Made by a program: the position numbers and the translations under genes. The notes beneath the pieces are model-generated. The model was not told where the DNA came from. It worked only from the letters and a program-made list of their open reading frames with translations, and searched no databases. A DNA stretch of 64,000 nucleotides from NCBI GenBank assembly GCA_964016885.1, contig OZ024743.1:36642001-36706000 (forward strand), given 5' to 3'. The stretch comes from Eledone cirrhosa. Taxonomy: Eukaryota. Position 1 is the first letter of the stretch. Every line of letters starts with the position of its first letter. Below are positions 3,581 to 64,000 of this stretch, piece by piece.

Positions 3581-3615
<35 letters not shown>

Positions 3616-16103: not shown

Positions 16104-16104
<1 letters not shown>

Positions 16105-16740: not shown

Positions 16741-16748
16741 AGATAGAT

Positions 16749-27420: not shown

Positions 27421-27442
27421 ATTAATCACACACACACACCAG

Positions 27443-27637
27443 TATCGGTAGAGGGTCGGACGCCATGCTTTGCAGCAAAAAGTTACGTTATGGTCTCTCA
27501 GTTCAAATCCCGCCGAGATAAACTTTGCCTTTCATCCTTACGGGTCGCTAAAATAAAGTACCAGTAATACACTGGGATAATTGCTCGCCTTGTGCCAAAA
27601 GTAGAAACAATTATTATTATTGTTATTATTATTATTG
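27443..27637 (+). mobile_element. Family 1 SINE whose tail extends into (ATT)n at the start of the retrotransposon nest
   Basis: B box gttcaaatcc, tail gtagaaacaattattattattgttattattattatt. Confidence 0.85.
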
Positions 27638-28485
27638 TTCTTTCAGTCTCAGTCATTGATGTTATTTAACTGGAAAGTTTGTTGAAATGAATATCAAACC
27701 GCTACCTGCAGCCTCAGATATTCAGGACGTATCGGAGGGTTCTTGCTGTTCCCAGCAAACATGCCTTTTGAAGTGTTCCAAAAAGCGGGCTGGACTAATC
27801 TTCTTTAACCACCATTGGAAACTCTTTGAGATAGTACCTAGTGCGCCTATGACAATCGGGACCACTTTGACTTCATGGCAGTTCCAAATCCTTTTTACCT
27901 CCCACTTTAAGTCCTGGTATCGGTTAATTTTCTCCCTCTCCTTTTCTTTCACTCTCGTGTCAAATGGGTAGGCTACATCTACAATCAGGTACGATCTATT
28001 TTCCTTGTCCAAAACCACCAGGTCAGGCCTATTGTGTTCCAGTTTCTTGTCCGTCTGTATCCTAAAATCCCATAGCACCTTCACCTGATCGTTTTCTATC
28101 ACCGACTCTGGCTTATGCTCATACCACCTCTCAGAATGTGGTAAATTGTTTACTTTGCATTGGTGCCAGTGAATCACCCTGCCTATCACATAATGTCTCC
28201 AGCCTTTATAGTGAGTCTGGGCTAGGTGTTTACACTCGGATACAATGTGAGCCACAGTCGCCTCTCTCTCCCCACAGATCCTACACAGTGGGCTAGCATC
28301 CTCCTTGTAAATATGGTGTTTCACCCACTTCGTTCTGAGGGCCTGCTCTTGCGCAGCCATTAGCATTCCTTCTGTAGCCTTTTTAAGGTCTCCTCTTTTT
28401 AACCAGTTCCATGTCTGTGGATCTCTAAATTCAGTTTTCTTAAAGAAGGTACTATGAAGGGATTTTTCATGAAGGTTGATCTTCT
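27638..28485 (-). mobile_element. 5'-truncated R4/Dong-like element (family A variant), flanked by (ATT)n on both sides
   Basis: ORF 27722-28366 has a CCHC-like knuckle and RPD..D RLE motif and closely matches the C-terminus of 29067-32459, with a terminal frameshift and the same 3' UTR. Confidence 0.9.
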
Positions 28486-28497
28486 ATTATTATTATT

Positions 28498-28738
28498 ACT
28501 GAGTATGTGTCTGTAAATTAAAGGTGGAAAACTGGGAGAGGGTACTTGCCCTGATGGTCAAGGTCACTGTGGCTTTTTAATGGGCTTTCTTCACGAATGT
28601 CCCTCGAAAGTATTGGGGAATTTTTCATTGTTATTTTTTTGTTACATCCTCTGTTTTTGTTTTTTTACACGTCCCGTATTGTCCTGTACTGTCCTTAATA
28701 TCTACTTTATGTAAACCCTTGTGGTTAATAAAGAAAGC
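28498..28738 (+). mobile_element. 5'-truncated, diverged 3' stub of the Tx1-like array family
   Basis: Matches 42893-43170 (taaaggtggaaaactgggagaggg..cccttgtggttaataaagaaa); followed by (ATT)n. Confidence 0.85.
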
Positions 28739-28752
28739 ATTATTATTATTAT

Positions 28753-28941
28753 AGGGTCACTGTGGTCTTTTAATGGGCTTTCTCCACAAATGTCCCTCGG
28801 AAGTCTCCCCCCTATTGGGGAATTTTTCTTTGTTATTTTATTACATCCTCTGTTTTTTACACGCAGAAATGCCCATTTGTACCGTCCTGTACTGTCCTTA
28901 ATGTCTACTTTATGTAAACCCTTGTGGTTAATAAAGAAAAA
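28753..28941 (+). mobile_element. Second 5'-truncated 3' stub of the Tx1-like array family
   Basis: Matches the 3' UTR from agggtca onward; followed by (ATT)n at 28942-28992. Confidence 0.85.
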
Positions 28942-28983
<42 letters not shown>

Positions 28984-28992
28984 GTTGTTATT

Positions 28993-31900
28993 CCTTGAAT
29001 CTCAGTCATTGATGTTGGTTAACTGGAAAGTCCGTTGGATTGAATATCAAGCCACTACCTGCAGCCTCAGATATTCAGGACGTATCGGAGGGTTCTTGCT
29101 GTTCCAAGAAAGCATGCCTTTTGAAGCGTTCCAAAAAGCGTGAAGGGGCCGATTTTCTTTAACCATCCCTGGAAACTTTTGGAGATAGTCCCCAGTGCGC
29201 CTATGACAATCGGGATCACTTTGACTTCATGGCAGTTCCAAATCCTTTTCACCTCCCACTTTAGGTCCTGGTATCGGTTAATTTTCTCCCTCTCCTTCTC
29301 TTGCACTCTCGTGTCGAACGGGCAGGCCACATCCACAATCAGACACGATCTTTTTTCTTTGTCCACAACCACCAGGTCAGGTCTATTGTGTTCCAGTTTT
29401 TTGTCCGTCTGTATCCTAAAATCCCACAGCACCTTCACCTGATTGTTCTCCATCACCGCCTCTGGCCTATGCTCATACCATTTCTCAGAATGTGGTAAAT
29501 TGTTTACTTTGCACAGGTGCCAGTGGATCACCCTGCCCATCACATCGTGTCTCCAGCCCTTATAGTGGGTCTGGGCTAGGTGTTTACACTCGGACACAAT
29601 GTGAGCCACAGTCTCCTCTCTCTCTCCACAGATCCTGCACAGTGGGCTAGCCTCCTCCTTGTAGATATGGTGCTTCAACCACTTCGTTTTGAGGGCCTGC
29701 TCCTGCGCAGCTATTAGCATTCCTTCTGTAGCCTTTTTGAGGTCTCCTCTTCTCAACCAGTTCCATGTCTGTGGATCTCTAAATTCAGTTTTCTCAAAGA
29801 AGGTACTATGAAGGGATTTTCCCTTAAGGCTGCTCTTCCTCCTTGATGTTATTTCCTCCTTGGACATCCCCTGGCCTACTGTCCCCTCCTTCAGTACAGT
29901 GCTGAGCATTGGCTCCTTACTATAGGTCACGTATTTGTATAGGTTGTTTTTCTCCATCTGAACACAGTCCTCTATGCTGATAAGACCTCTTCCACCCTCA
30001 GATCTCCTTAGGTAGAGTCTATCGACATCACTCCTCTTGTGGAACATGTTGTAGATAGTCAATAGCTTCCTAGTCTTCCTATCCATTTCTTTTTGTTCAG
30101 CAACATTCCATCTCAGAATTCCCGCACTGTACCTAATAATAGACACAGCTCGGGAATTTACTGCGCTTATGGCATTTCTGCTGTTCAGATGTAACTTCAA
30201 TACGCTCCTTACTCTCCGAATGTATTCAGTTCTTAACAATTTCTTCATTTTTTTGTTCTTTATGTCATCAGCCTCCAGAACGCCCAAATACTTGTATCCT
30301 TCCTCAGAGTCAATTTCCTTTATCATCTCACCTGTTGGTATCTGGATCCCGTTACTTCTGCTCAACCTACCCCTCTTCATCACAATGACTCCACATTTAC
30401 CAATACCAAACTGCATACATATATCACTGCTGAAAATACGGACAGTGTCAACAAGCACATCCAACTCCTTCTCACTTTTCCCGAAGAGCTTAAGATCGTC
30501 CATGAAGAGGAGGTGATTGATGGTAAGCTCTCCCCTTCCCAACTTGTATCCTGCTCTCACTTTTCGCAGCATAATGGTCAAGGGCATCAGGGCAAGGACA
30601 AACAACAGAGGGGACAGGCTATCTCCCTGGAAGATACCTCTCTTGATCTTCACGCTTCCCAAGGATACTCCAGTTGATGTCAACTCTGTCTCCCAGGACC
30701 CCATACTCCTGCCTAGCAACTGTCTGATGTTATCTGCCACCCTGAAGATCTCCAGGCTTTTGGTGATCCAGGAATGAGGCACCATGTCAAATGCCTTTCT
30801 GTAGTCTATCCATCCCATGGCAAGATCAGTGTGTCTCCTCCTGCAATTCCCCATTACCATCTTATCAATAAGTAACTGGTCCTTTGTACCACGTGACTTC
30901 TTTCGGCATCCTTTCTGTTCGTCCGGTAACAAGTTGTTTGTGTGGAGGTGATGGTAGATTTCCTCAGACACAATGCTCGTCAACAGTTTCCACATTACGG
31001 ACAGACATGTGATAGGTCTATAGTTGGTAACATCATTACCCTTGATTCGGTCTTTCATTATCAGAACTGTGGTACCTTTTGTCAACCACTCTGGCACCTC
31101 ACCCGACACCAAGCAGTCATTGAACATGGCCGTCAGCTTCGGGTGGAGGGATGTTAAATGTTTAATCCAATACCCCTGCACACCATCTGGGCCTGGTGAT
31201 TTCCAGTTGGTTAGTTTTTTGGCCTGCCCCTTAAGAGTTTCAACTGTGATACTCAAATCAGTTTGTTGTTGTGCCTGCTCACCGATCTCCCTCTGTACTG
31301 TCTCAATCCACCCTGCCTGGGCATTGTGTCTAACATCCTGCTCCCATATTCCTCTCCAAAATGTTTTAGTTTGCTCCGCCCCAGGGATCAAGTCGTTGCC
31401 TCTTTCTTTCCCCTCAAGCTGTCCAAACAGCATCTTCTGGTTGTTGTCGAACATGCGGTTCTGTTTATACTGACTGACTCTGTTCTCGTATCGCCTGATT
31501 TTTGCACTCTTTGCTACAATGCGTTGCTTCAGTTCCTCTATGATAATATTTAGCTTTTTCCTCCTAGTTTTGTATTTTATTTCCAGTCTATTTTTAGTGC
31601 CTATGTTTTTTAGTGTCCCATTCAGTAGTGACTCAAGCTTTCCTATGTCATTTCTCATTTCCCCGATTTGCCCACTCAGTCGCTTCTTCCACCACGGCTC
31701 TGCTCTTTCTTGTCTGTTGTATCCTCTCGCTTTTATACCAAGTAGTTTCCTCACCGTATTTGCTGTTGCTTTGAGGATATTGTTGCACTGGTGAAGGCTC
31801 CTCGCCTCAAGGTATGGGATGACTTTGTTTACCTTAGCTGTTGTTTCTTTTAACTTTTTCCTGTCTACAAATCTTAGGTTCATAGGTCTCCCACTATCAT

Positions 31901-32747
31901 TGTTCAATTCATCTACCACTAAATTTAGGATGTCAACCGAATCTTGTCCTAGCCCGTCAGCATTTATCTCCTCAGTGGCCGTATCTCTGTTCCAGGTATT
32001 ATTTATCTCAGTATTCAGATCATTGTCTGCTTCGGGTGGTTCCTCCGTTCTCAGGACCTCTTCACCTTCATTTCCCACTGGCTCGCTTGTCTGGCATACT
32101 ACACCCGCCATCTCCAAGCCATTCTCTCTGCTCAGTTCCTCCAGTTCCAGCTCGCTTATCCATCCATTAGTTCTTATTACCCGAGCCTGCCCGGCCAATT
32201 TTTGTTCATCTAATTTAAATAAACCAATCTCGTTCCAGATGTTATGCATCCGTCTCCTGTAGCCCCTCTCCTTGGGGTTACTTTTCAGGTAACATTGCAT
32301 AACAGTTCTATTCAATTCTTTCGTCCAGTTGGTTCTGGCCCCTTTCCTTCTTCTCCTTCCTCCAACATCAGCAGTATTTGGTTGACAGTCAGGTTCCTGC
32401 TGCTGAGCCAGGGGGCACCTGTTGGGTGAGAGTCTGTCACATGACGTTCTAGTCTCCATTTCACCGTTATTCGAACTGTTTGTGTTCGATATTTAAACAC
32501 TCTTATCGAGGATTGGCGAATGTATGGTTACATATCCATCTGTGGATCCGCCATTCCACTTGGCCCTTGTGTGGCATTATCACCACGCTGTATACGAACA
32601 CACATAAACAAACAAACACACGGGCAGAAAGGGCCCCAAAAATGAATAAGCATAAGTTTCATTGTAATGTAGTGTTCGAATGTCTGACTTAGTTTTTGTT
32701 TTTTTAGTTTTAGTTTTCCCCCCCTCTTCTCTGTCCGTCCGCCTGCT
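28993..32747 (-). mobile_element. Full-length R4/Dong-like RLE non-LTR retrotransposon (family A) in a (TAA)n target
   Basis: Single intact ORF, ~290-nt 5' UTR, ~75-nt 3' UTR, with (TAA)n in element sense at both ends. Confidence 0.9.
29067..32459 (-). CDS. R4/Dong-like polyprotein: RT, CCHC knuckle, restriction-like endonuclease (1130 aa)
   Basis: KSPGPDG, NYRPITCL, WIDYRKAFD, GIFQGDSLSP, LFMDDLKL, CRICGEREETVAHIVSEC, RHD, RPDLVVVD..VDVACP..KINRY; no APE domain. Confidence 0.93.
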   Translation of the reverse strand: METRTSCDRLSPNRCPLAQQQEPDCQPNTADVGGRRRRKGARTNWTKELNRTVMQCYLKSNPKERGYRRRMHNIWNEIGLFKLDEQKLAGQARVIRTNGWISELELEELSRENGLEMAGVVCQTSEPVGNEGEEVLRTEEPPEADNDLNTEINNTWNRDTATEEINADGLGQDSVDILNLVVDELNNDSGRPMNLRFVDRKKLKETTAKVNKVIPYLEARSLHQCNNILKATANTVRKLLGIKARGYNRQERAEPWWKKRLSGQIGEMRNDIGKLESLLNGTLKNIGTKNRLEIKYKTRRKKLNIIIEELKQRIVAKSAKIRRYENRVSQYKQNRMFDNNQKMLFGQLEGKERGNDLIPGAEQTKTFWRGIWEQDVRHNAQAGWIETVQREIGEQAQQQTDLSITVETLKGQAKKLTNWKSPGPDGVQGYWIKHLTSLHPKLTAMFNDCLVSGEVPEWLTKGTTVLIMKDRIKGNDVTNYRPITCLSVMWKLLTSIVSEEIYHHLHTNNLLPDEQKGCRKKSRGTKDQLLIDKMVMGNCRRRHTDLAMGWIDYRKAFDMVPHSWITKSLEIFRVADNIRQLLGRSMGSWETELTSTGVSLGSVKIKRGIFQGDSLSPLLFVLALMPLTIMLRKVRAGYKLGRGELTINHLLFMDDLKLFGKSEKELDVLVDTVRIFSSDICMQFGIGKCGVIVMKRGRLSRSNGIQIPTGEMIKEIDSEEGYKYLGVLEADDIKNKKMKKLLRTEYIRRVRSVLKLHLNSRNAISAVNSRAVSIIRYSAGILRWNVAEQKEMDRKTRKLLTIYNMFHKRSDVDRLYLRRSEGGRGLISIEDCVQMEKNNLYKYVTYSKEPMLSTVLKEGTVGQGMSKEEITSRRKSSLKGKSLHSTFFEKTEFRDPQTWNWLRRGDLKKATEGMLIAAQEQALKTKWLKHHIYKEEASPLCRICGEREETVAHIVSECKHLAQTHYKGWRHDVMGRVIHWHLCKVNNLPHSEKWYEHRPEAVMENNQVKVLWDFRIQTDKKLEHNRPDLVVVDKEKRSCLIVDVACPFDTRVQEKEREKINRYQDLKWEVKRIWNCHEVKVIPIVIGALGTISKSFQGWLKKIGPFTLFGTLQKACFLGTARTLRYVLNI

Positions 32748-32775
32748 TATCATTATTATTATTATTATTATTATT

Positions 32776-35700
32776 TGCATTTATCTTGCTTTATGTTTAT
32801 ACGAGTTATCACCAAGTCACAACCAGTGACCTCAAGAGACAACAAGGTCCGCCATGTTCAAGAAAGAACACACATATTCACACATGCATCCTTAGTGTTT
32901 AGACTTGTGATGTACTTATATTGACAGGATCTTCCTTAGTATATGGGCAGTTCCCATTAGTACTATCTTTTGTATTTCTCCTATAGGCGGGTTTCCTGGG
33001 ATTTGCGATAAGTAGTCGTTAGACCCCTTAGGTATCATTCCCAGAGCGCCTACAACCACTGGTATTGTTTTAGTTCTCAATTTCCACATTTTTCCAATTT
33101 CTATCTCCAGGTCCTTATACTTGCTCAATTTTTCAAATGTTTTTATAGATACATTCTTGTCTATTGGAACAGACATATCAATTAGCAGGCATACCCTCCT
33201 TTGAAAGTCCTTCAATATTATATCAGGTCTATTTGCATCTATTTTTCGGTCTGTTTGGATGCTAAAGTTCCACAAGATTGAGATGTGATCTTTTTCAAGT
33301 ATGGGAGGTGGTTGATGCTCCCACCAATTCTTTTGATGGGACAGGTCAAAATGCTTGCACATTATCCAATGTATGTATTGTGCAGCTCTGTCATGCCTGT
33401 TTAGGTATTCGGTTGGAGCTATAGGACTGCACATTGAAATTATATGGTCAATGGTCTCTGGTTGTTTTTTGCATACACGGCATAATGGGCTGCACCCATT
33501 TTTTATTATGTTGGCTTGGTAATTTTTTGTTGGCAGACACTGATCTTGTGCGGATATAATCAGTCCTTCAGTCTCCGATTTCAGTCCAGAGGATGCCAAC
33601 CACTGATGGGTTAAAGTTTTGTCAACATCAGGATTGTTAGCTCGCTCTGGGTATTTTCCATACAGAGGCTTTTCTTGCCATTTCTTAGCCAGTTTCTGTA
33701 GCAGTTCTTTCTTTGCAGTTACTTTTACCTGCTTTGCTTTTTCTGTGTTTTCCATTTCAGCAGTAAATGGGACTTCTGAAATTTGTAGTCCATTACTGTA
33801 TCTTTGTGCATCTTTTGTAATGGAATATGATCTTTTGGTGCTTTCGTGTTTCAAAACGAGTTTGATCATCCAATCATGTGATTCCCTTAGATATGTGGAT
33901 AATCCAATTGTTGCAGTTTTCAACGCAATGTCTAACTGGATTAACCCACGTCCTCCTTCTTTCCTAGGGAGATATATTCTATCTATGTCTGCCTTAGGGT
34001 GATGCATTCTGTGCATGGTTAAGAATTTTCGGATTTTTGTATCGAGCCTACGGATCTCTGTGCTTGACCAGTTGATGACATTGTAACTGTAGGTTACTAC
34101 TGGTATGGCAAGCGTGTTTATGGCATCGATCCTATTCCTTGCATTCAATTCCGTTCTTAAGATTGCTCTGACTCTGCGGTAACATTCCTTCCTTATGCTT
34201 TCCCTCATTGTCGAGTGCTTGATTCCGTCTCCTTCACAAACACCTAGATATTTGTAAGTTTGTTCTTGATCAAGCTCTCTTATCACGTTCCCCCGATCAA
34301 GATTAATGTCTGAACTCTTCAGCAGCTTTCCTCTGGTGAACGTTGCTTTGGCGCATTTATCCAGTCCAAACTCCATTTTAATGTCATCACTGAACTGCTT
34401 CACAGTGGATAATAGCCCTTGCAATTGTTCATCATTTTTTGCAAATAGTTTCAGGTCATCCATGTAGAACAGGTGATTAATGGTTTTGTCATAGACTCTA
34501 TATCCATGTTTTGTTTCATTGAGCATTTTACTTAATGGTATAAGTGCGATGCAGAATAAAAGCGGTGATAAAGAGTCACCCTGAAAAATTCCACAATTAA
34601 TGTTAACTTCTCCAGCTTCCAGTGATTTTGTTTCACTATTCAAAAGGAGTGTCGTTCTCCATGTCCTCATACTGAATGACAAAAACCTCCTGATAACGGG
34701 GGATATTTTGAAAATCTCTAAACATTTTTCAATCCAACTGTGTGGCAAACTATCAAATGCTTTTTTATAATCTATCCAAGCAATCGATAGATTTTTGTGT
34801 CTATTATGACAATCTTCCAGTATCATTTTGTTAACCAGAAGCTGATCCTTACAGCCATATGAGCCTCGTTTACACCCTTTCTGCTCAATGGGAAATAGGT
34901 CATTTGTTATCAGGTGGTCATATGTGTATTCAGTTAGGACTGATGTTAAAATTTTATACATTGTGGTCAAGCAGGTTATCGGTCTGTAATTTTTGGGATT
35001 GTTTGTCTCATCATTCTTCGGTAGCAGGAATGTAATGCCGTTAACTAGCCATGATGGTATCTTTTCTGGCTCCTTAACTATTTCATTGTAAAGTTGGGCT
35101 AACAGCTCATGAGACTCTGTGAAGGCATTTATCCAAAAGTTTTGTATTTTGTCTTTTCCTGGGGATTTCCATTTGCTGGTTTTTCTTAGAGCCAAGCGCA
35201 GCTGTTCAACTGTTATATTTTCCCATGTTTGTTCTTCAAGGTGAGCTGTTTCTTTCATTTGTCTGTCTATCCATGGGGCATGTATGTTATGAACTTTTTC
35301 TTCGGCCCAGATCTTTTCCCAGAATTCTTGCACTTCCTCCTTGGGTGGTATTGATTTAGCAGTTATTGTTGACTTACCAATTTTTCTGTAGAAGTTTCTT
35401 TGGTTGTTTTTGAACATATTATTGTCCTTATAGAATCTAGATCGTTTTTCAAAGCGCCTTATACGAGCAGCTTTGGCCGACACTTTTTGCTTGATTGTTT
35501 CTATCAGCATGTCTATGTCACATGTTGATCTTATACTGTACTTTTTTTTCAATTTTCTAAGTTTAGTTTGTTTAACATGTTCACCTACTTTATAGTTTGT
35601 TAAAATTTCTATGTCAGATCGGAGAAGGTTTATTTGGCGATTGATGTTATCTTGCCAAGTAGATTTCTTGTGGGAATTCCTTTGTTTTTTCATCTTCACT

Positions 35701-36750
35701 CCACATAAGTGAGTGGTGACTTTAGCCGATGCATAATAGAGATGATTTAAGTCAGTAATGCTTAGTTTGTTTGTGATGATAATGTTTTTGAGAATTATGT
35801 TTGTCTTGTGTATTATCTTTTGGTTCTGTTTGGAGTTCTGGATCTTAGGGAGGGTGTCTCGTTCCCCCATGTCAGATTCTTTCATTTTCATCCATTCGAT
35901 CATAATTTCATCCTTCAAGTTGGCAAGTTCATTCTCATTCATTTCTTTATCATTTACGATCTCATTATTTTCATTTGGAGTTTCATCCTGAGCATGCACT
36001 CCCTCCACTTTTTCGCTCCTTTCTTTAATTTGTTCTGTTGCCAGTGATTCCGCCCCAACTCTGGGATTCGAAGTGTTACAGTTTACCTCGTTTTCACTGA
36101 CACATGCTTCATTTTCCCTTCGCTGACTTTGTGCTACTAGCTTGATCTGATCAATTTCTATATCAGTTAGTAACTTTTTTCTTACAATATTTCTTCGTAT
36201 ATTGGCTAGTTTGTTACTGTCAATATAGCCTCTGTTTTCGGGATGTTTCTTTTTCCAGTTGATATATGTTTGCTCTGTATTCGATGTATTTGATGGGTAG
36301 TACATGGCAGTGTAGAAAGCCTCAAGGACTTCTTTATTATCTTCCCTTGACCATTTTTCTCTCTTTTTCTTTGGATTTCTTGGTGGTGAGCATGGAGGGC
36401 CAACAGTAGGAGTATTCCGGTTATGGGAGGTCTCCAGCTCCGAAGTGATGGGAAGGTTTGAACCATTAGCTGATTTTTCGACCCCAGTCTGGTTCCTCTC
36501 TGAGGGACGCGGCCCTTTTTTACCCGGGTGACGGCCAATCCGGTATGAGATTTTATCATTAGACATCTACTTTATTTTGTCGCGTTTTATCCTTATCCGC
36601 CAAGGGGTAATCTTTTCGTGTTACCACTTCTAGAACGAGTGTCAACCAAGACTAGAGGGGTCGTTCTCCCCTAGAGACATGGCTATTCCCCGCCGGCCGC
36701 CATCCCGGTATCTCTTGGTCACGGGGTTTTCTTTTTGTTGTTTTTTTTAA
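32776..36750 (-). mobile_element. Full-length R4/Dong-like RLE non-LTR retrotransposon (family B), tandem with family A
   Basis: Single intact ORF; separated from element A only by (ATT)n at 32748-32775; short TAA-like repeat at the 5' flank (36751-36762). Confidence 0.9.
32916..36566 (-). CDS. R4/Dong-like polyprotein: RT, CCHC knuckle, restriction-like endonuclease (1216 aa)
   Basis: KSPGKD, NYRPITCL, WIDYKKAFD, GIFQGDSLSP, FYMDDLKL, CRVCKKQPETIDHIISMC, RHD, RPDIILKD..IDMSVP..KLSKY. Confidence 0.93.
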   Translation of the reverse strand: MSNDKISYRIGRHPGKKGPRPSERNQTGVEKSANGSNLPITSELETSHNRNTPTVGPPCSPPRNPKKKREKWSREDNKEVLEAFYTAMYYPSNTSNTEQTYINWKKKHPENRGYIDSNKLANIRRNIVRKKLLTDIEIDQIKLVAQSQRRENEACVSENEVNCNTSNPRVGAESLATEQIKERSEKVEGVHAQDETPNENNEIVNDKEMNENELANLKDEIMIEWMKMKESDMGERDTLPKIQNSKQNQKIIHKTNIILKNIIITNKLSITDLNHLYYASAKVTTHLCGVKMKKQRNSHKKSTWQDNINRQINLLRSDIEILTNYKVGEHVKQTKLRKLKKKYSIRSTCDIDMLIETIKQKVSAKAARIRRFEKRSRFYKDNNMFKNNQRNFYRKIGKSTITAKSIPPKEEVQEFWEKIWAEEKVHNIHAPWIDRQMKETAHLEEQTWENITVEQLRLALRKTSKWKSPGKDKIQNFWINAFTESHELLAQLYNEIVKEPEKIPSWLVNGITFLLPKNDETNNPKNYRPITCLTTMYKILTSVLTEYTYDHLITNDLFPIEQKGCKRGSYGCKDQLLVNKMILEDCHNRHKNLSIAWIDYKKAFDSLPHSWIEKCLEIFKISPVIRRFLSFSMRTWRTTLLLNSETKSLEAGEVNINCGIFQGDSLSPLLFCIALIPLSKMLNETKHGYRVYDKTINHLFYMDDLKLFAKNDEQLQGLLSTVKQFSDDIKMEFGLDKCAKATFTRGKLLKSSDINLDRGNVIRELDQEQTYKYLGVCEGDGIKHSTMRESIRKECYRRVRAILRTELNARNRIDAINTLAIPVVTYSYNVINWSSTEIRRLDTKIRKFLTMHRMHHPKADIDRIYLPRKEGGRGLIQLDIALKTATIGLSTYLRESHDWMIKLVLKHESTKRSYSITKDAQRYSNGLQISEVPFTAEMENTEKAKQVKVTAKKELLQKLAKKWQEKPLYGKYPERANNPDVDKTLTHQWLASSGLKSETEGLIISAQDQCLPTKNYQANIIKNGCSPLCRVCKKQPETIDHIISMCSPIAPTEYLNRHDRAAQYIHWIMCKHFDLSHQKNWWEHQPPPILEKDHISILWNFSIQTDRKIDANRPDIILKDFQRRVCLLIDMSVPIDKNVSIKTFEKLSKYKDLEIEIGKMWKLRTKTIPVVVGALGMIPKGSNDYLSQIPGNPPIGEIQKIVLMGTAHILRKILSI

Positions 36751-37095
36751 ATTGTTATTATCATGAGTGGTTCCTTAATGTGAGCATTGCGTGGCTTAAG
36801 AATGAAATTATTAATAATTGTCTCCACTCCAGGCCAGCAATCACCCAGTGCATTACAATAATATAATATACTTTTTGTTGTAGTTGGCTGTTATTGCTGC
36901 TGGCTATGTCGGTGGTGGTGCCGGGGCTTTTTATATTGTTGGTGAGGAAGGGGTGAGCCAGCAGTCCCATAATTGTTGATGTAGACATTTGTCCGTGGCA
37001 AGGTTACCAAGTCAATCTATTTATATCTTTTGCTAGCCTCTCTCTTGTCTAGTGCTACCACCACCTTCCCTTTTCTCTCACAAGTTAACAGGGGA

Positions 37096-37143
<48 letters not shown>
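37096..37143. repeat. (ATT)16 tract preceding the Tx1-like array
   Basis: Direct count. Confidence 0.95.
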
Positions 37144-37356
37144 GAATGCCATGGTTGACGGAGGTTCGGCTCTGTAAGGTATAGTAATTTTTAACCGTTA
37201 AAACAATTGTAAATTGTTTAAAACTTGAACCAAATTGTTGATAAAGACACCCTCCTCCTCGTGAGAGGGGTCTTTCTGTCCGTTATTTGGCCCTTCGGGG
37301 TTAAATAACCAGTTATTGGGGTTTTGTACCCAAAATTTCATTTTAAACAAAAAAAC

Positions 37357-39453: not shown

Positions 39454-39488
39454 GTGGTCTTTCCCATCTTTTCCACTCTATTTTAAAC

Positions 39489-43168: not shown

Positions 43169-43203
<35 letters not shown>

Positions 43204-45513: not shown

Positions 45514-45548
45514 GTGGTCTTTCCCATCTTTTCCACTCTATTTTAAAC

Positions 45549-48968: not shown

Positions 48969-49229
48969 ACTAAAGGTGGAAAACTGGGAGAGGGCACTTG
49001 CCTTGGTGGTCAGGGTCATTGTGGCTTTTTACTGGGCTTTCTCCACAAATGTCCCTCCGAAGTCTCCCCCCTATTGGGGAATTTTTCATTGTTATTTTCA
49101 TTGTTATTTTTGTTACATCCTCTATTTTTGTTTTTTTTACACGCAGAAATGCCCATTTGTACCGTCCTGCATTGTCCTGCACTGTCCTTAATGTCTACTT
49201 TATGTAAACCCTTGTGGTTAATAAAGAAA

Positions 49230-49276
<47 letters not shown>

Positions 49277-49489
49277 GAATGCCATGGTTGACGGAGGTTC
49301 GGCTCTGTAAGGTATAGTAATTTTTAACCGTTAAAACAATTGTAAATTGTTTAAAACTTGAACCAAATTGTTGATAAAGACACCCTCCTCCTCGTGAGAG
49401 GGGTCTTTCTGTCCGTTATTTGGCCCTTCGGGGTTAAATAACCAGTTATTGGGGTTTTGTACCCAAAATTTCATTTTAAACAAAAAAAC

Positions 49490-51586: not shown

Positions 51587-51621
51587 GTGGTCTTTCCCAT
51601 CTTTTCCACTCTATTTTAAAC

Positions 51622-55041: not shown

Positions 55042-55432
55042 ACTAAAGGTGGAAAACTGGGAGAGGGCACTTGCCTTGGTGGTCAGGGTCATTGTGGCTT
55101 TTTACTGGGCTTTCTCCACAAATGTCCCTCCGAAGTCTCCCCCCTATTGGGGAATTTTTCATTGTTATTTTCATTGTTATTTTTGTTACATCCTCTGTTT
55201 TTGTTTTTTTACACGCAGAAATGCCCATTTGTACCGTCCTGCATTGTCCTGCACTGTCCTTAATGTCTACTTTATGTAAACCCTTGTGGTTAATAAAGAA
55301 ATCATTGTTATTTTTGTTACATCCTCTGTTTTTGTTTTTTTACACGCAGAAATGCCCATTTGTACCGTCCTGCATTGTCCTGCACTGTCCTTAATGTCTA
55401 CTTTATGTAAACCCTTGTGGTTAATAAAGAAA

Positions 55433-55467
<35 letters not shown>

Positions 55468-55680
55468 GAATGCCATGGTTGACGGAGGTTCGGCTCTGTA
55501 AGGTATAGTAATTTTTAACCGTTAAAACAATTGTAAATTGTTTAAAACTTGAACCAAATTGTTGATAAAGACACCCTCCTCCTCGTGAGAGGGGTCTTTC
55601 TGTCCGTTATTTGGCCCTTCGGGGTTAAATAACCAGTTATTGGGGTTTTGTACCCAAAATTTCATTTTAAACAAAAAAAC

Positions 55681-57777
55681 ATGGCTACGAAAAAGAAATT
55701 TCATACGTCACTCCCACTCATTCCGTCTTCTTCTTCCTCAATCATCACTACAGCAGAGAGAAGATTGTCTCTCTCCCTCCCTTCTTTAAATGTGTCTCTC
55801 TCCCTCCCTTCTCTTTCGCAAGCGACGAAAGAAAAGAAAAGTCTCGTGCAAAGCGTGCAAGGTTTCTCCACGACCACGACGACAGCGACGAAACAGGTGT
55901 GCGGGAAATACGAAAACCCAGTTCATTCGTATGACGTTAGGAATAATAGCAGTAGCAGCCGTAATAACAACAGCAACAGTGACAATGAAAACAACAGTAG
56001 CAGCCGCAACAGCATCACCAGCAGCATAAACAACAACAGCATTAGCAGCAGCAACACCAACAACAACCACAGCAACAGCGGCGGAGGCAGTAGTCGTAGT
56101 ACCTGCAGCAACAACAAAAGTACCAGCAGCTCTGACGACAACAACAACAGCAGAGAAAAACCAATCTCATTTGCAGGTATTGCGAAAAACTTGGAAACAA
56201 TCCTCATAACAAATGAGGAATTAGAGGAAGCGAAGAAGATGGTGACAAAGAACGGACACCGAGCAATCTGCAAGGCAGCGAAAAATTTTTTCGGAACCCA
56301 AGAGCACTGTACGGTCACGTACCGTACAGTAAGTACAAAATCCCGTAGGGTGGAAAGAGCCACAGAGGCCCAAATACAAAAAGCCTTGGGGTCTGTGTGG
56401 CAGCGGAAAACGCACATCACCCGAGGCAAAAAATATGCCACCGTAGACGTACTTTTTGCCACACCCCAGGAGGCAAAGGCCCAATCAGTAGTGACCCTAA
56501 GGAGCGAGGAAATGGTGTTGGTGCCCTCCTACTGTGGGCAAAAAATTGTGAGGGTCAAACTGACCCACGTCCCCCCCGGAATGACCCCTTCTTGGCTGGC
56601 CGCGTCTGTCCTCGTCGGAATCGAGGACAAAACAACTGTACTGCAAGTACAGAAAAAAGTAAGAGAAGATTGGGTCGGCTCCTCCATTGAGATGCTAATC
56701 CAAACCAACCAGGAGTGCATCGAAGCTATCCCGGATGTGATAGACTTCGATAACGGCACTCAACTGCCCATAAGTGTTGAGGGCAAACGCCCGAAATGCT
56801 TTCGCTGTGGATCGAAGACTCACCTCAGGGCCTTCTGCAACGAGAAGACCCTGAGAAAGGAGAAAACCCCCCTCCTTCCGAATCCGGCTCCACGGCTACC
56901 AGCAACAGGACAAGCGGCAACCAGGAACGATAGGCCCGTGGCACCCATACCCACTCCACGGAAATCAAAAACAGCAGCAGCAGTGGAAATACTAACAACA
57001 ACAACAGCAATACCAAATGCAGCTGCAACAGAGACTCCAGTGCAAACATCACCAACAACAACAAGTGAAAGAGTGGAGTTGGTACCCCTCCCCGACCTCA
57101 CAGAATCAGACATGGAGTGTGAGGTGGGAGAGAGATGGCAAAAGGTCGTAAGAAGGCACAAACGCAGAAGCAGCGCATCGTCGCCTTTGAAAAGGGAGGA
57201 AAGAAATGAGAAAAGGGTAAAGTCTACTGCAAAGAGACCCACAGCAGCAACAACACCAACACCATCACCACCCACACTAGCGCCACCATCACCACCGGCG
57301 ACAACCCCACCGCCAACAACACCTTCAACACCACCACCACAAGCACCAACATCGCAAACACAACAACAAAACACACACACCCAGCAACAACGACAAGAAA
57401 ATAGCAGAACCACACCCCACCCCCAGAAAAACAAATGCACGGCAATAAATACACACAACAAGAAACTAATGACTTACATAATTGAACACACAGACATTTC
57501 ACAACAGGACTACATAATACCAGCACCAATCAAAACGCCAACTAACATAAGACTGCTAAAAATAGCACAGAAACAATACACAAACATTAAAACGAAATTC
57601 CCCAACGCAGTTGGTGATTTCAGGGACCTAGGAGGAACCATCAATCGAAGAGTATACTCAGACATTCTCTTAGAAGAGCCGACGACCAGCCGAAGGGACG
57701 ATTCAACGGTCCCTTCACCAGACGATCAAGTGAAAAGGGATGTAAAAACCATCCCTCCTCTACCAAAAGTACGGTAA
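55681..57777 (+). CDS. Tx1-like ORF1, copy 4
   Basis: Translation identical to copy 1. Confidence 0.88.
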   Translation: MATKKKFHTSLPLIPSSSSSIITTAERRLSLSLPSLNVSLSLPSLSQATKEKKSLVQSVQGFSTTTTTATKQVCGKYENPVHSYDVRNNSSSSRNNNSNSDNENNSSSRNSITSSINNNSISSSNTNNNHSNSGGGSSRSTCSNNKSTSSSDDNNNSREKPISFAGIAKNLETILITNEELEEAKKMVTKNGHRAICKAAKNFFGTQEHCTVTYRTVSTKSRRVERATEAQIQKALGSVWQRKTHITRGKKYATVDVLFATPQEAKAQSVVTLRSEEMVLVPSYCGQKIVRVKLTHVPPGMTPSWLAASVLVGIEDKTTVLQVQKKVREDWVGSSIEMLIQTNQECIEAIPDVIDFDNGTQLPISVEGKRPKCFRCGSKTHLRAFCNEKTLRKEKTPLLPNPAPRLPATGQAATRNDRPVAPIPTPRKSKTAAAVEILTTTTAIPNAAATETPVQTSPTTTSERVELVPLPDLTESDMECEVGERWQKVVRRHKRRSSASSPLKREERNEKRVKSTAKRPTAATTPTPSPPTLAPPSPPATTPPPTTPSTPPPQAPTSQTQQQNTHTQQQRQENSRTTPHPQKNKCTAINTHNKKLMTYIIEHTDISQQDYIIPAPIKTPTNIRLLKIAQKQYTNIKTKFPNAVGDFRDLGGTINRRVYSDILLEEPTTSRRDDSTVPSPDDQVKRDVKTIPPLPKVR

Positions 57778-57812
57778 GTGGTCTTTCCCATCTTTTCCAC
57801 TCTATTTTAAAC

Positions 57813-60800
57813 ATGACCTCACTCAGAATAGGCAGCATAAATGCGCGTGGCTTGGGATCGTCATGGAAGCAGGGTCACCTGCTCAACGACCTCAGGTCAC
57901 TAAACATAGATGTAGTGGCCATCAGCGAGACCAGAATCTCCGAAGCACGGGCCTTCGTACCGATCTTCGGCGGCTACGATGTGTACGCATCTCCCAGCCG
58001 TCCTGGATCGGGTGGAGGAGTTGCTGTGCTTTTTCGGAGAGGTTTGGATCTCGCCATACGGGCCATCTTCCTGGACCCAGAGGGTAAGCTGGTGGTGCTG
58101 GACGTGACCAGCGGAGACGGGCAAGCTTTCAGGCTAGTGGCCGTCTATGCCCCGACAGGAGCAGGGCGGCCTGATTTCTTCCGGCGTCTGGAGACCTTTC
58201 TTGGAACGTCCCGCTCTTTAGTGTTAGTGGGCGACTAGAACGGGATCTTAGATGCACGCTGGGACTGTGTGGGATTAGCGGATAGGGGTGGAGGGTGCAA
58301 GAGCCTCACCAACCTGCTCAGGCGTTTTGAACTGTATGACAGGTACCGATTGGATTTCCCGAATGTGCCAATGTGGACTTGGACAAACCGCATAGGGTCA
58401 TCCAGATCATATCTAGATAGAGTATTTTGTAGGGAAATAGATAGGTCTAGCATAGGCTGTCCACAATTCAAGATAGTCAGCTACACGGACCACAAATTCG
58501 TGATCTGTGTGCTTGACTTAGATAGGCTTCATAGACGAGGACCCGGCTACTGGAAGCTAAACGCGTCCTTACCAGCGCGCAAGGCCTACAGAGACCGGAT
58601 TAGCGAACTAGTTAAGCGGGCGTTGACGGGGGCCATCGTCAACAACAAGTGGTGGTTTGCTCTGAAAAGAGCAATTAGAATAGAGTCCATTAGGTTTAGT
58701 AAGGCTTTAGCAATAGAGAAAAATAGAGCAGAGGGAGAACTAGTTAGAAAATTAGACGAGGCGCTTAGCAAAGGCATTGCGACCGACGTGCTTGCGGCGA
58801 AATTGGCCCTTGACCAATTCTTCAATGCAAAGCACGAAGGCTGCGTTGTCAGAGCTAGGGTGCGTGCTCTCAGACACGAGGGGACGAAAGCCGTTCAATG
58901 GGCCCGAGTGGCGGAGGCGCGTCGTGGCAACAAAGCCACGATCCGGTCTTTGGTGGACCACGACGGGCGCATGCTACTCGATCCCGGGCAAATGTGTGAA
59001 GCTTTTCAGCGACACTTCGCTCAGCTGTTCGGGGGCAGCGGGGGGCCGGGTAGAGGGATGGACTTTAGTGTCTACCTCGACGGACTGCCGTGGCTCTCGG
59101 CCACTGAGGCGGAGTGTTGCGAAAAGCCGATAACAGCCGCTGAAGTAAGGGAGGCAATGACTGGCTGCACAAGGGGTAAATCGCCTGGTTTGGATGGTCT
59201 GCCCTATGAACTTTACGTACAGATGCCAGACTTGTTCGGAGGCCTCTTGGCGGACGTCTACTGCAACTGGCAACAGAACGGGAGAATTCCCAGTTCTGTG
59301 AGCCGAGGAGCGGTGGCACTGCTGAGAAAGGATCCGAACAAGGGGGATAACATAGACAATTTCCGGCCCATAACTCTGCTAAACACAGAGTTTAAGATTT
59401 TGGCCAAGGTGCTAGCAAAGAGGTTGGCGCTTGTCGTTGGTGGTCTGGTGGGAGAGGCGCAGACATGCGCCATTCCCGACAGATCCATCCACGATAACCT
59501 CCACCTCATGCGATACATCGTAGAGAGGGTAGCTAGGGAACCTGGCACGGGTGGGTCCTTGATCAATTTAGATCAGTCGAAAGCTTTCGATAGGGTCGAC
59601 CATCGTTACCTAGCGGCAGTCCTGAGGGCGGCTGGCTTTGGGCCCGTCTTCAGAGGCTGGATCGCTGCCATGCACAGCGACATCTGCTCTGTGGTGAGAG
59701 TGAACGGTCACCTGTCGGAACCGTTCAACATCATGCGCTCGGTCCGCCAAGGATGTCCCCTCTCGTCCCTCTTGTACGTATTGACTCTCGAGCCATTACT
59801 GCACAAACTGGAGACGTTGAGGGGAGTCCCGCGCGAACTAGGATGCGGAAGATCCGTGTCAGCATATGCGGACGATGTCACCGTAGTGGTGTCGAACGCC
59901 AAACACATCGAGGCGATCGGCACTACACTAAGAGAATACGAAGCGGTGACAGGAGCAATGATCAACCAGGAAAAGTCAGTGGGCCTGCAGCTCGGCACCT
60001 GGAGAGGCAGGTCCATGCCGTCCAACAGCGTCGTCGGGCGCTGGACGGACGGACCGGTTAAATTGCTAGGGGTCTGGTTCGGTCCGGACCTCCAGACGGA
60101 CAAAAACTGGGACGAGGTGACGAGCAGGGTGGCTTCTCTCACCCAGAAATGGGCGGAGAGGAAGCTATCCCTGAAAGGTCGAGCGGAGGTGGCTAACGCG
60201 TACATCGCGTCTGTCATCTGCTACCGCCTAACCGTCGTACCTTGTCCTAAGCCTCGCCTGACTGCGCTGGAGCGTTTGCTCTTTCGCTTTTTGTGGAAGG
60301 GACGTGCTCCGATGGTCAGGCGGTCCATCTGTTGTCAACACCCGCTACGTGGAGGGCTGGGCATGCCGTGGCTGATGATGCGCAGGCACGCGCTCAGGCT
60401 ACGACATCTCCACCTCTTCCTCGACGGTGATCAGGTGTGGTCGCCGTTTGCTAGACGCGTTTTTCCCCAGCTCGTTTCCTTGACGGAGCTGCAGTCCTGG
60501 GTCAAGCGAAGACCGAGAGGGAGCGCCTGGAGACTGGAATGTCTTCAGGCGCTCACAGCCCTCGACCAATCGGGCAATGTGATCGGTGGAAACTCCACCT
60601 CGGCGTTCTATAGAGGATTAGTGGAGGGGAAGAGCGACGACGTACTTGGGGAAACTCTAGGCGTCGACGAAAATCAACTAGCCAATCTCTTCGGAAGAAC
60701 TTTCGGGCCAGGGCCTATGGACAACTTCCAGAAATCTCTGGCCTGGCAGTGCTACCGAGGAGCCTTGCCAGTTCGGGATAAACTCTACAGGCATGGAGGT

Positions 60801-61232
60801 GCCGTCAGCCGGGCATGTCCGAGATGCGCGCAGGGCGACGAAACCGTCCTGCACGCACTCGTCCAGTGTCCGAAAATTGCTGACTTGTGGGTTTATGTCG
60901 AACACCTGCTGTCGCGTTTAGGACGGATCCAGTTATCATCTGAGTCTATCGTGAGGATTGCCCCGCCCTCCTCCTTTAGCCGGGAAGGGCAGGCAGTTTT
61001 TATCTGTCTGGTGGCCATGGCGAAAGAGATAGTATGGTGGACACGTTTGAAAGGGCTGAAGACGAGCACTTACCTCTTCGGTGATGCTCTGATTGACTTT
61101 TTCAAATTTCATTTGAAAAGGAAAATCAGAGTAGAGAAGGAAGTGCTCTCTTCCCAGCATTTTGTTGAAAGATGGGTGAGAGAAGCAAGAATGGCCCGAG
61201 TGAATGGGCCGACTCTGAGTATATATCTGTAA
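57813..61232 (+). pseudogene. Tx1-like ORF2 copy 4, interrupted by the same TGG>TAG stop
   Basis: Stop at 58236-58238. Confidence 0.92.
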
Positions 61233-61492
61233 ACTAAAGGTGGAAAACTGGGAGAGGGCACTTGCCTTGGTGGTCAGGGTCATTGTGGCTTTTTACTGGG
61301 CTTTCTCCACAAATGTCTCTCCGAAGTCTCCCCCCTATTGGGGAATTTTTCATTGTTATTTTCATTGTTATTTTTGTTACATCCTCTGTTTTTGTTTTTT
61401 TACACGCAGAAATGCCCATTTGTACCGTCCTGCATTGTCCTGCACTGTCCTTAATGTCTACTTTATGTAAACCCTTGTGGTTAATAAAGAAA

Positions 61493-61533
<41 letters not shown>

Positions 61534-64000
61534 GAATGCCATGGTTGACGGAGGTTCGGCTCTGTAAGGTATAGTAATTTTTAACCGTTAAAACAATTGT
61601 AAATTGTTTAAAACTTGAACCAAATTGTTGATAAAGACACCCTCCTCCTCGTGAGAGGGGTCTTTCTGTCCGTTATTTGGCCCTTCGGGGTTAAATAACC
61701 AGTTATTGGGGTTTTGTACCCAAAATTTCATTTTAAACAAAAAAACATGGCTACGAAAAAGAAATTTCATACGTCACTCCCACTCATTCCGTCTTCTTCT
61801 TCCTCAATCATCACTACAGCAGAGAGAAGATTGTCTCTCTCCCTCCCTTCTTTAAATGTGTCTCTCTCCCTCCCTTCTCTTTCGCAAGCGACGAAAGAAA
61901 AGAAAAGTCTCGTGCAAAGCGTGCAAGGTTTCTCCACGACCACGACGACAGCGACGAAACAGGTGTGCGGGAAATACGAAAACCCAGTTCATTCGTCTGA
62001 CGTTAGGAATAATAGCAGTAGCAGCCGTAATAACAACAGCAACAGTGACAATGAAAACAACAGTAGCAGCCGCAACAGCATCACCAGCAGCATAAACAAC
62101 AACAGCATTAGCAGCAGCAACACCAACAACAACCACAGCAACAGCGGCGGAGGCAGTAGTCGTAGTACCTGCAGCAACAACAAAAGTACCAGCAGCTCTG
62201 ACGACAACAACAACAGCAGAGAAAAACCAATCTCATTTGCAGGTATTGCGAAAAACTTGGAAACAATCCTCATAACAAATGAGGAATTAGAGGAAGCGAA
62301 GAAGATGGTGACAAAGAACGGACACCGAGCAATCTGTAAGGCAGCGAAAAATTTTTTCGAAACCCAAGAGCACTGTACGGTCACGTACCGTACAGTAAGT
62401 ACAAAATCCCGTAGGGTGGAAAGAGCCACAGAGGCCCAAATACAAAAAGCCTTGGGGTCTGTGTGGCAGCGGAAAACGCACATCACCCGAGGCAAAAAAT
62501 ATGCCACCGTAGACGTACTTTTTGCCACACCCCAGGAGGCAAAGGCCCAATCAGTAGTGACCCTAAGGAGCGAGGAAATGGTGTTGGTGCCCTCCTACTG
62601 TGGGCAAAAAATTGTGAGGGTCAAACTGACCCACGTCCCCCCCGGAATGACCCCTTCTTGGCTGGCCGCGTCTGTCCTCGTCGGAATCGAGGACAAAACA
62701 ACTGTACTGCAAGTACAGAAAAAAGTAAGAGAAGATTGGGTCGGCTCCTCCATTGAGATGCTAATCCAAACCAACCAGGAGTGCATCGAAGCTATCCCGG
62801 ATGTGATAGACTTCGATAACGGCACTCAACTGCCCATAAGTGTTGAGGGCAAACGCCCGAAATGCTTTCGCTGTGGATCGAAGACTCACCTCAGGGCCTT
62901 CTGCAACGAGAAGACCCTGAGAAAGGAGAAAACCCCCCTCCTTCCGAATCCGGCTCCACGGCTACCAGCAACAGGACAAGCGGCAACCAGGAACGATAGG
63001 CCCGTGGCACCCATACCCACTCCACGGAAATCAAAAACAGCAGCAGCAGTGGAAATACTAATAACAACAACAGCAATACCAAATGCAGCTGCAACAGAGA
63101 CTCCAGTGCAAACATCACCAACAACAACAAGTGAAAGAGTGGAGTTGGTACCCCTCCCCGACCTCACAGAATCAGACATGGAGTGTGAGGTGGGAGAGAG
63201 ATGGCAAAAGGTCGTAAGAAGGCACAAACGCAGAAGCAGCGCATCGTCGCCTTTGAAAAGGGAGGAAAGAAATGAGAAAAGGGTAAAGTCTACTGCAAAG
63301 AGACCCACAGCAGCAACAACACCAACACCATCACCACCCACACTAGCGCCACCATCACCACCGGCGACAACCCCACCGCCAACAACACCTTCAACACCAC
63401 CACCACAAGCACCAACATCGCAAACACAACAACAAAACACACACACCCAGCAACAACGACAAGAAAATAGCAGAACCACACCCCACCCCCAGAAAAACAA
63501 ATGCACGGCAATAAATACACACAACAAGAAACTAATGACTTACATAATTGAACACACAGACATTTCACAACAGGACTACATAATACCAGCACCAATCAAA
63601 ACGCCAACTAACATAAGACTGCTAAAAATAGCACAGAAACAATACACAAATATTAAAACGAAATTCCCCAACTCAGTTGGTGATTTCAGGGACCTAGGAG
63701 GAACCATCAATCGAAGAGTATACTCAGACATTCTCTTAGAAGAGCCGACGACCAGCCGAATGGACGATTCAACGGTCCCTTCACCAGACGATCAAGTGAA
63801 AAGGGATGTAAAAACCATCCCTCCTCTACCAAAAGTACGGTAAGTGGTCTTTCCCATCTTTTCCACTCTATTTTAAACATGACCTCACTCAGAATAGGCA
63901 GCATAAATGCGCGTGGCTTGGGGTCGTCATGGAAGCAGGGTCACCTGCTCAACGACCTCAGGTCACTAAACATAGATGTAGTGGCCATCAGCGAGACCAG
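61534..64000 (+). mobile_element. Tx1-like element copy 5 (cut by the window end)
   Basis: Same 5' end after (ATT)13; complete ORF1 and the start of ORF2 at 63879. Confidence 0.92.
61747..63843 (+). CDS. Tx1-like ORF1, copy 5
   Basis: Intact, with five visible private amino acid changes (Y>S, G>E, T>I, A>S, R>M). Confidence 0.88.
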   Translation: MATKKKFHTSLPLIPSSSSSIITTAERRLSLSLPSLNVSLSLPSLSQATKEKKSLVQSVQGFSTTTTTATKQVCGKYENPVHSSDVRNNSSSSRNNNSNSDNENNSSSRNSITSSINNNSISSSNTNNNHSNSGGGSSRSTCSNNKSTSSSDDNNNSREKPISFAGIAKNLETILITNEELEEAKKMVTKNGHRAICKAAKNFFETQEHCTVTYRTVSTKSRRVERATEAQIQKALGSVWQRKTHITRGKKYATVDVLFATPQEAKAQSVVTLRSEEMVLVPSYCGQKIVRVKLTHVPPGMTPSWLAASVLVGIEDKTTVLQVQKKVREDWVGSSIEMLIQTNQECIEAIPDVIDFDNGTQLPISVEGKRPKCFRCGSKTHLRAFCNEKTLRKEKTPLLPNPAPRLPATGQAATRNDRPVAPIPTPRKSKTAAAVEILITTTAIPNAAATETPVQTSPTTTSERVELVPLPDLTESDMECEVGERWQKVVRRHKRRSSASSPLKREERNEKRVKSTAKRPTAATTPTPSPPTLAPPSPPATTPPPTTPSTPPPQAPTSQTQQQNTHTQQQRQENSRTTPHPQKNKCTAINTHNKKLMTYIIEHTDISQQDYIIPAPIKTPTNIRLLKIAQKQYTNIKTKFPNSVGDFRDLGGTINRRVYSDILLEEPTTSRMDDSTVPSPDDQVKRDVKTIPPLPKVR

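Follow-up and report, generated by a model that had tools for sequence, protein, structure and literature searches.

How do retrotransposons of two clades come to fill one microsatellite locus, each clade in an orientation of its own? The question is raised by a window of 64,000 nucleotides from the genome of Eledone cirrhosa (GenBank assembly GCA_964016885.1, contig OZ024743.1, forward-strand positions 36,642,001 to 36,706,000), where the stretch from window position 27610 to the window end, over 36 kb, consists of pieces of retrotransposons that lack long terminal repeats (non-LTR), with (ATT)n between them. This stretch is called the nest here, and all coordinates are window positions. The minus-strand pieces are Dong-like, with a reverse transcriptase (RT) and a restriction-like endonuclease (RLE), and the plus-strand pieces are Tx1-like, with an RT and an apurinic/apyrimidinic endonuclease (APE). 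We consider it rather probable that a Dong-like RLE element and an array-forming Tx1-like APE element both inserted in (ATT)n, in opposite orientations set by the strand on which the matching RNA end can prime, and that the APE array was later enlarged or homogenised by recombination.

Layout and polarity of the nest

Mapped element ends and repeat runs gave the series of pieces listed in Table 1, running from a short interspersed element (SINE) over an RLE stub, two APE stubs and two full-length RLE elements to five APE copies. Order, strands and separation by ATT agree with an earlier reading of the locus made from its letters (the sequence-only reading), and so does the strictly clade-specific orientation: RLE pieces lie on the minus strand in 3/3 cases and APE pieces on the plus strand in 8/8. 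If orientation were random, simple arithmetic puts the probability of this polarity at about 0.008 when 3+5 events are taken as independent, and at about 0.03 when 3+3 are. The plus strand of the nest holds 11 runs of at least three ATT units, 312 bp in total, and no run of at least three AAT units; the 27.6 kb of the window before the nest hold one run of each kind, 9 bp long. No element interrupts another, and joins between elements occur at ATT runs only, the sole exception being a 131-bp repeat at 55304-55434, which the sequence-only reading had missed. This repeat is joined to copy 3 through microhomology, an internal ATT-like stretch and the tail agreeing at 10 of 11 positions, and is either a product of slippage or a very short insertion. 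What had been counted as five or more Tx1-like copies are four complete ones and a fifth that the window end cuts off. Each insertion still has ATT on either side, so that the target is regenerated, and the APE pieces form a single series from the SINE tail on once the RLE pieces are taken out. The SINE copies at 15511 and 17640 likewise end in a short ATT stretch, and ARAGORN called no tRNA in the SINE at 27441-27609. Seeding of the nest by the SINE tail is plausible, and much of the first ATT run may be the own tail of the RLE stub.

Every element ends in the repeat, and the ATT runs at 3' ends are therefore uninformative on target versus tail. At the 5' side, at least four ATT units adjoin 7/8 APE ends, both old stubs included and the 131-bp repeat excepted; the 5'-truncated stubs A and B each have (ATT)4 directly upstream. 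The RLE 5' ends are adjoined by at least four units in 3/3 cases, counting RLE2 if a 330-bp stretch described below is its untranslated region (UTR). On the RLE sense strand the repeat reads (TAA)n at 3/3 of the 3' ends and, with the same proviso, at 3/3 of the 5' ends, all at this one locus. The runs at 28486-28497 and 37096-37143 each sit between two 5' ends, and, being head-to-head, they are remnants of the target and not tails, which rules out that the ATT runs are element tails only. Seven APE 3' ends are visible; none carries poly(A) (0/7), and 6/7 continue into at least four ATT units five bases past AATAAA. A published definition of target-specific insertion requires that, across the genome, a single type of sequence make up more than 20% of the flanks (PMC4494074; here and below, statements on published work refer to the accessible part of each source). 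Set beside that definition, ATT at 7/8 APE 5' ends describes one locus and not genome-wide flanks.

Table 1. Mapped features of the nest and of a related pair of stubs outside it
Feature	Position	Strand	Remarks
SINE, dispersed family, short ATT tail, left border of nest	27441..27609	+	other window copies at 74-88% identity
(ATT)n run separating the 3' ends of SINE and RLE stub, tail-to-tail	27610..27639	+	
RLE stub (Dong-like), 5'-truncated, RLE1 family	27640..28485	-	90% identity over 876 bp to RLE1 3' part
(ATT)4, head-to-head between two 5' ends	28486..28497	+	
APE 3' stub A	28499..28738	+	93% identity to copy 1, 238 aligned bases
(ATT)4 ahead of APE stub B	28739..28750	+	
APE 3' stub B	28753..28941	+	96% identity to copy 1, 187 aligned bases
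(ATT)14 after APE stub B	28942..28983	+	
RLE1, full-length RLE-type non-LTR retrotransposon	28984..32751	-	single open frame 29067-32492, 1141 aa; RVT_1 E=3e-23; CCHC, RHD, RPD..D..K
(ATT)8 between RLE1 5' end and RLE2 3' end	32752..32775	+	
RLE2, second RLE family	32776..37095	-	ORF 32916-36563, 1215 aa; 36765-37095 likely 5' extension
(ATT)16, head-to-head between RLE2 5' end and APE copy 1 5' end	37096..37143	+	
APE copy 1, 6027 bp	37144..43170	+	ORF1 37357-39453, ORF2 39489-42908, both open
APE copy 2, (ATT)11 ahead	43204..49231	+	ORF2 stop W142*
APE copy 3, (ATT)15 ahead	49277..55303	+	both ORFs open
Exact repeat of last 131 bp of APE element, no ATT run between it and copy 3	55304..55434	+	0 mismatches
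APE copy 4, (ATT)11 ahead	55468..61494	+	ORF2 stop W142*
APE copy 5, (ATT)13 ahead, cut by window end	61534..64000	+	
Sister APE family, two tandem 5'-truncated stubs (miniature nest), outside ATT nest	16104..17004	-	70% nt identity over 336 bp

Enzyme types of the two clades

The enzyme types named in the sequence-only reading were recovered in the proteins. In the open reading frames (ORFs) of both RLE1 and RLE2 the RT is followed by a C-X2-C..H-X4-C zinc motif and by RHD and RPD..D..K motifs; RVT_1 was the only core domain found, with no Exo_endo_phos. This is the domain order of RLE-type non-LTR retrotransposons, in which a CCHC zinc motif and a PD..D/ExK-type endonuclease come after the RT and APE is absent. 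Matches of RLE2 in the PDB were R2 proteins only, with alignment running over RT to RLE, and the two RLE proteins share 35% amino acid identity. R4-type elements have a single ORF without N-terminal C2H2 zinc fingers, unlike R2 and Utopia. RLE1 and RLE2 have the single-ORF, C2H2-free architecture expected of the R4/Dong clade, a simple pattern search having found no C2H2 pattern in either ORF. No R4/Dong-named sequence was among their eight database matches.

The APE family encodes an ORF1 of 698 aa with one CCHC knuckle and an ORF2 of 1139 aa with APE, RT and a C-terminal zinc motif (Exo_endo_phos E=7e-14, RVT_1, zf-RVT). This is the architecture of the L1 group (L1/Tx1), i.e., ORF1 plus an ORF2 with N-terminal APE, RT and a C-terminal cysteine motif. 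The best PDB match of ORF2 was human L1 ORF2p (E=3e-52, versus E=1e-21 for R2), and the closest named relative came from Argonauta hians, with 73% identity in RT. We take the RT motifs to resemble those of Tx1; database searches with the APE proteins gave no Tx1-named match, and the tree mentioned below also holds no named Tx1 row. Both labels, Dong/R4 and Tx1, are provisional and compatible with the architecture and flanks of the elements. The catalytic endonuclease motifs of RLE1 and RLE2 and the catalytic motifs of APE are intact. Proteins of the two clades align in RT only, at 23-26% identity, in keeping with their description as unrelated. The APE 5' UTR at 37144-37360 (+) folds better than 200/200 shuffles (z=-2.9) and has no Rfam match; over 27300-43400, a ribozyme/Rfam search at E<=5 returned five weak matches, all well under the gathering score, and no ribozyme.

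The 330-bp stretch next to RLE2

About 330 bp at 36765-37095 had been read as other sequence between the RLE elements and the APE copies. This stretch is more likely the 5' end of RLE2 than host DNA, mainly according to one contig of one read run. Reads of four of 16 listed runs were mapped to 32450-43203, leaving out the ATT junctions at 32739-32787, 37089-37149 and 43023-43054 and one more stretch. Run X14 is restriction-site-associated DNA sequencing (RAD-seq), run X11 gave nine partial reads and was uninformative, and the runs may come from another species or population than the window. A single contig of run X1 spans 35546-37042 unbroken and unbranched; its depth is 31, and it has 28 differences and 8 gaps. 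Depths in the same run are 53-68 for the listed RLE2 contigs and 43-44 for APE 5' contigs. A one-base insertion at 36994 is present in 3/3 informative runs. With the 330 bp as the RLE2 5' end the nest is continuous, and the alternative, in which 330 bp of host DNA divide it in two, was set aside on the X1 contig, not conclusively.

Two observations speak for a break at this place: the summed depth of run X5 drops from about 73,000 (36741) to about 1,770 (36994), and the X14 reads over the stretch all begin at one place. Depth in run X5 rises from 5' to 3' for both the RLE and the APE families, which is expected of families with many 5'-truncated copies. On the minus strand the stretch ends at a degenerate AAT stretch (36754-36765), and it contains a weak 50-bp match to a SINE tail, tested post hoc, with score 52-54 versus a shuffle maximum of 48-51 (0/500). 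It is possibly a flank captured by a source copy, i.e., a 5' transduction. Folding gave no support for a structured RNA at 36610-36730 (-) (z=-0.51). Among the top 40 differences between window and reads, 38 fall in RLE2 and the RLE1 5' end (32450-36750, up to 36712); at most of the 38 the window has G/C where the reads have A/T, the reverse of simple decay.

Origin of the full-length APE array

The sequence-only reading had every copy as a separate insertion; patterns of single-nucleotide differences indicate recombination or duplication inside the array. Copies 1 and 3 differ at 7 sites and copies 2 and 4 at 9, the remaining pairs among copies 1-4 at 16-20, and the W142* stop in ORF2 is common to copies 2 and 4. 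Ten sites follow an ABAB pattern along the four copies, all within unit positions 2770-3681 (912 bp) with W142* as the first, and the analytic P for such a span is about 4e-7. Within the first 2769 bp 0-2 sites separate any two of copies 1-4, and copy 5 is set apart from them by 8-10 of 2467. The spacers ahead of copies 1-5 count 16, 11, 15, 11 and 13 ATT units, equal for copies 2 and 4. Leaving aside the exact 131-bp repeat, there is one indel among copies 1-4 over 24 kb. Position 37920 is T in copies 1-3 and G in copies 4-5, in 411/422 X14 reads and in all X5 and X1 depth; with reads of possibly different origin, T may not be private to this array.

Five independent full-length insertions were ruled out as a default by the 1/3 and 2/4 pairing and the common stop, and the five copies probably did not arise in that way. 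The 1/3-2/4 pattern would be produced by dimer duplication, by gene conversion, by read-through dimer transposition or by stitched haplotypes. Enlargement is made less straightforward by the concentration of the paired-copy differences in the 3' 2.3 kb (5/7 and 8/9), because of which simple dimer duplication followed by random mutation is insufficient.

Relatives outside the nest

A sister APE family lies in the window as two tandem stubs (Table 1); each is followed by (TATC)n, and ahead of the first stands a degenerate TATC run. Related APE families thus occupy different microsatellites on both sides, ATT and TATC, at one locus each. The nearest ORF2 relatives with DNA context, at 41% identity, were found mostly (41/43 loci) on contigs of G001, a metagenome-assembled genome from GTDB titled 'uncultured Arenicella sp.'. 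Many contigs of G001 (loci L081-L121, L134-L148) are animal-like and carry mostly intact L1/Tx1-like elements, and these contigs are likely host contamination. The relatives group with the window APE family in a quick-method tree of 39 rows (SH-aLRT 99). A C-rich/G-rich hairpin, similar in look to that of the window family, was seen in the 5' UTRs of several G001 families.

Several G001 families are arranged head to tail in family-pure arrays whose period is 6.4-6.9 kb, and a microsatellite was present at 0/51 distinct array junctions, as found by one 3'-end motif that misses motif-less junctions. Head-to-tail arraying is therefore a trait of the APE lineage without need of ATT, which weakens the claim that an ATT landing pad causes the array. 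In 15 regions there were 12 3' ends, four of them outer; each outer end keeps 11-18 nt of the internal junction past AATAAA and then passes into host-like DNA, and on one contig the outer 5' end opens with 18 nt that nearly repeat those of its outer 3' end. We found no description of an array-forming lineage with such 11-18 nt terminal redundancy. One tail-to-internal junction is present twice in locus L115, which is a DNA-level duplication.

RLE relatives on G001 contigs have (AAT)n on the sense strand in 11/11 runs at four loci, two L125 repeats being left out, and this polarity matches that in the nest. In L125-L127 (G001:C16) three occurrences of an RLE fragment that carries long (AAT)n runs lie about 8.16 kb apart, a further tandem unit on these contigs. 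Viral contigs gave no relative of the nest elements. Metagenome contigs gave 80 loci from 126 confirmed stretches, mostly partial and with 23-42% identity in the best segment. The ESM Atlas returned generic RT/APE clusters only, and a protein cluster look-up no clade names.

Mechanism and alternative explanations

The strand geometry in target-primed reverse transcription (TPRT) is established, and together with the orientation of the elements it places APE priming on the (AAT)n strand and priming by the RLE families on the (ATT)n strand. Of the earlier proposal that two endonucleases nick opposite strands, the opposite priming strands thus stand; strand-specific endonucleases do not follow, since annealing of the RNA end fits equally. 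In the mechanism that we favour, the APE transcript would run past AATAAA into its flank and end in (AUU)n, as the lack of poly(A) at the 3' ends suggests. This RNA end would anneal to the nicked (AAT)n strand, so that any ATT run, the SINE tail or the element's own spacer included, could become an APE target, and RLE elements would enter the ATT spacers of the growing APE array. The nest could be accounted for by about five APE insertions, namely stubs A and B, two founders of the array and copy 5, and by three RLE insertions, with the full-length array enlarged or homogenised afterwards by recombination. For APE polarity we lean slightly to tail-primer annealing over strand-specific nicking, because poly(A) is lacking, sister families switch between ATT and TATC, and relatives show short terminal redundancy. 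Complementarity between primer and tail contributes to site choice in L1 (PMC3649969), and primer-tail annealing that contributes to initiation has been proposed for SART1 (PMC7265360).

Several points weigh against this mechanism. In TRAS1 and SART1 the endonuclease is the primary target determinant (PMC7265360), which favours strand-specific nicking over annealing. The mixed nest is one locus. The absence of microsatellites from the G001 junctions means that the ATT preference is not lineage-wide and that arrays do not depend on it. In a comparison of nine G001 ORF2 copies, those on different contigs resemble one another (mostly 0-5 differences of 3420, at most 10) as closely as neighbours do (4-7), which favours repeated insertion over local duplication.

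A stricter model, close to the sequence-only reading, holds that each endonuclease is specific for both sequence and strand of the ATT/AAT duplex and that all copies inserted separately. The polarity without exception and the intact catalytic motifs of both enzyme types fit it, as do the altered targets after endonuclease swaps in TRAS/SART (PMC7265360), the tail-to-internal junctions of stubs A and B, which count as signs of insertion (PMC5932611), and the G001 arrays, which appear fed by a genome-wide young family. Separate insertion does not account well for the early ORF2 stop and ten-site tract common to copies 2 and 4, for their equal 11-unit spacers, for an allele in copies 1-3 that is rare in other samples, or for the near identity of copies 1-4 over a stretch where copy 5 differs, and we regard this model as improbable. 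Equally improbable is a one-way model in which only RLE elements target TAA, while APE elements end in ATT and array on themselves; RLE elements would invade the tails, and opposite orientation would be automatic. It draws on the published TAA targeting of Dong, the polarity held by RLE relatives elsewhere, the single APE series that remains after removal of three RLE insertions, and the relatives that array without microsatellites. Stub A, the first APE piece and 5'-truncated, would however have had to land in ATT of non-APE origin that prolonged the SINE tail, and in the outside 27.6 kb runs of at least three ATT units amount to 9 bp; the sister family has a degenerate TATC run as its outermost 5' flank, with no APE copy upstream.

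The number of full-length copies might in part be an assembly artefact, copies 1-2 and copies 3-4 being two haplotypes of one shorter array that were placed one after the other. This would explain the ABAB pattern, the paired copies only 0.12-0.15% different and the equal spacers of copies 2 and 4. We hold it to be very improbable: copies 1-4 have the single indel described above, copy 5 is distinct, and an independent assembly has long arrays of related elements. Such an artefact would in any case not touch the stubs, the RLE insertions or the polarity. A wider form of the favoured mechanism is put forward tentatively, as doubtful though possible: an L1/Tx1-like lineage may pick its target by the 10-20 bases read past the poly(A) signal, stack on itself into family-pure arrays, and adopt a read-through microsatellite (ATT, or TATC in the sister family); together with Dong-like RLE elements on the other strand, this would turn (ATT)n runs into self-renewing nests across octopod genomes.

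Comparison with known systems

The closest parallel in geometry is TRAS/SART, of the R1 clade in Bombyx telomeric repeats, where two non-LTR families also use one tandem repeat in opposite orientations and strands (PMC7265360, PMC10088271). There, however, both families are APE elements of one clade in (TTAGG)n at chromosome ends, whereas the nest combines RLE and APE in a trinucleotide microsatellite. Dong inserts in TAA repeats (PMC3812793, PMC1635306), although it is listed among APE elements in the former source and as restriction-like in the latter. Dong and Rex6 resemble the nest RLE elements in their RLE-type single ORF and in having sense-strand (TAA)n at either end, and the nest differs in having two RLE families, 35% identical, in tandem inside the array spacers of another element. 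In Octopus vulgaris, Dong-R4 is abundant and young, with 1129 recent insertions in five families, and many young L1-Tx1 copies are present too (PMC13282606); for O. bimaculoides a full-length Dong consensus was reported, with no target analysis in the accessible text (PMC9115989).

Tx1 families target TC, TTC, TTCC and TTTC repeats (PMC4494074). Such families (Kibi, Koshi and the crocodilian TTCC/TTTC families) share with the nest APE family two ORFs, microsatellite flanks and related families on different units; unlike it, they include no ATT or TATC target and none shared with an RLE element, as far as the available texts go. Both Keno (Tx1, APE) and Utopia (RLE) insert at a single site in U2 snRNA genes (PMC4640811), but identical 3' flanks give them the same orientation, within a gene, in contrast to the opposite orientations in a self-renewing repeat seen here. 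Drosophila R1 is similar in that same-site reinsertion leaves the target in place and builds head-to-tail arrays, which unequal exchange enlarges (PMC5932611); there an rDNA duplication separates the copies of a single family, while the nest has a microsatellite spacer and three families. Neither an ATT-targeting Tx1-like family nor an RLE/APE microsatellite nest in opposite orientations was found in the accessible literature, PMC3747384 included; Repbase, Dfam, Kojima and Fujiwara 2004, the supplements of PMC4494074 and PMC13282606 and the Zenodo library of PMC13282606 could hold one. Each ingredient has precedent, and the combination appears undescribed.

Other features of the window

Outside the nest, 21613-23863 contains two inverted 260-bp repeats (21613-21870 and 23606-23863, 96% identity) that enclose a 414-aa RT frame (22117-23361, -; RVT_1 E=5e-6). 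This may be a Penelope-like element.

Implications

If the polarity is genome-wide, the nest elements would be a natural pair of young elements with intact frames, in which different endonuclease chemistries act on the two strands of one three-base duplex. They would provide a simple substrate to ask whether the nick or the pairing of the RNA primer fixes target and orientation. ATT and TATC would join the repeats used by L1/Tx1-like elements, and microsatellites and SINE tails would be shown to grow into transposon hotspots tens of kilobases long. Targeting by read-through, if true, would mean that target specificity can shift by RNA inheritance with the endonuclease unchanged. The array-forming sister clade suggests a wider route by which retrotransposons may turn into satellite-like arrays.

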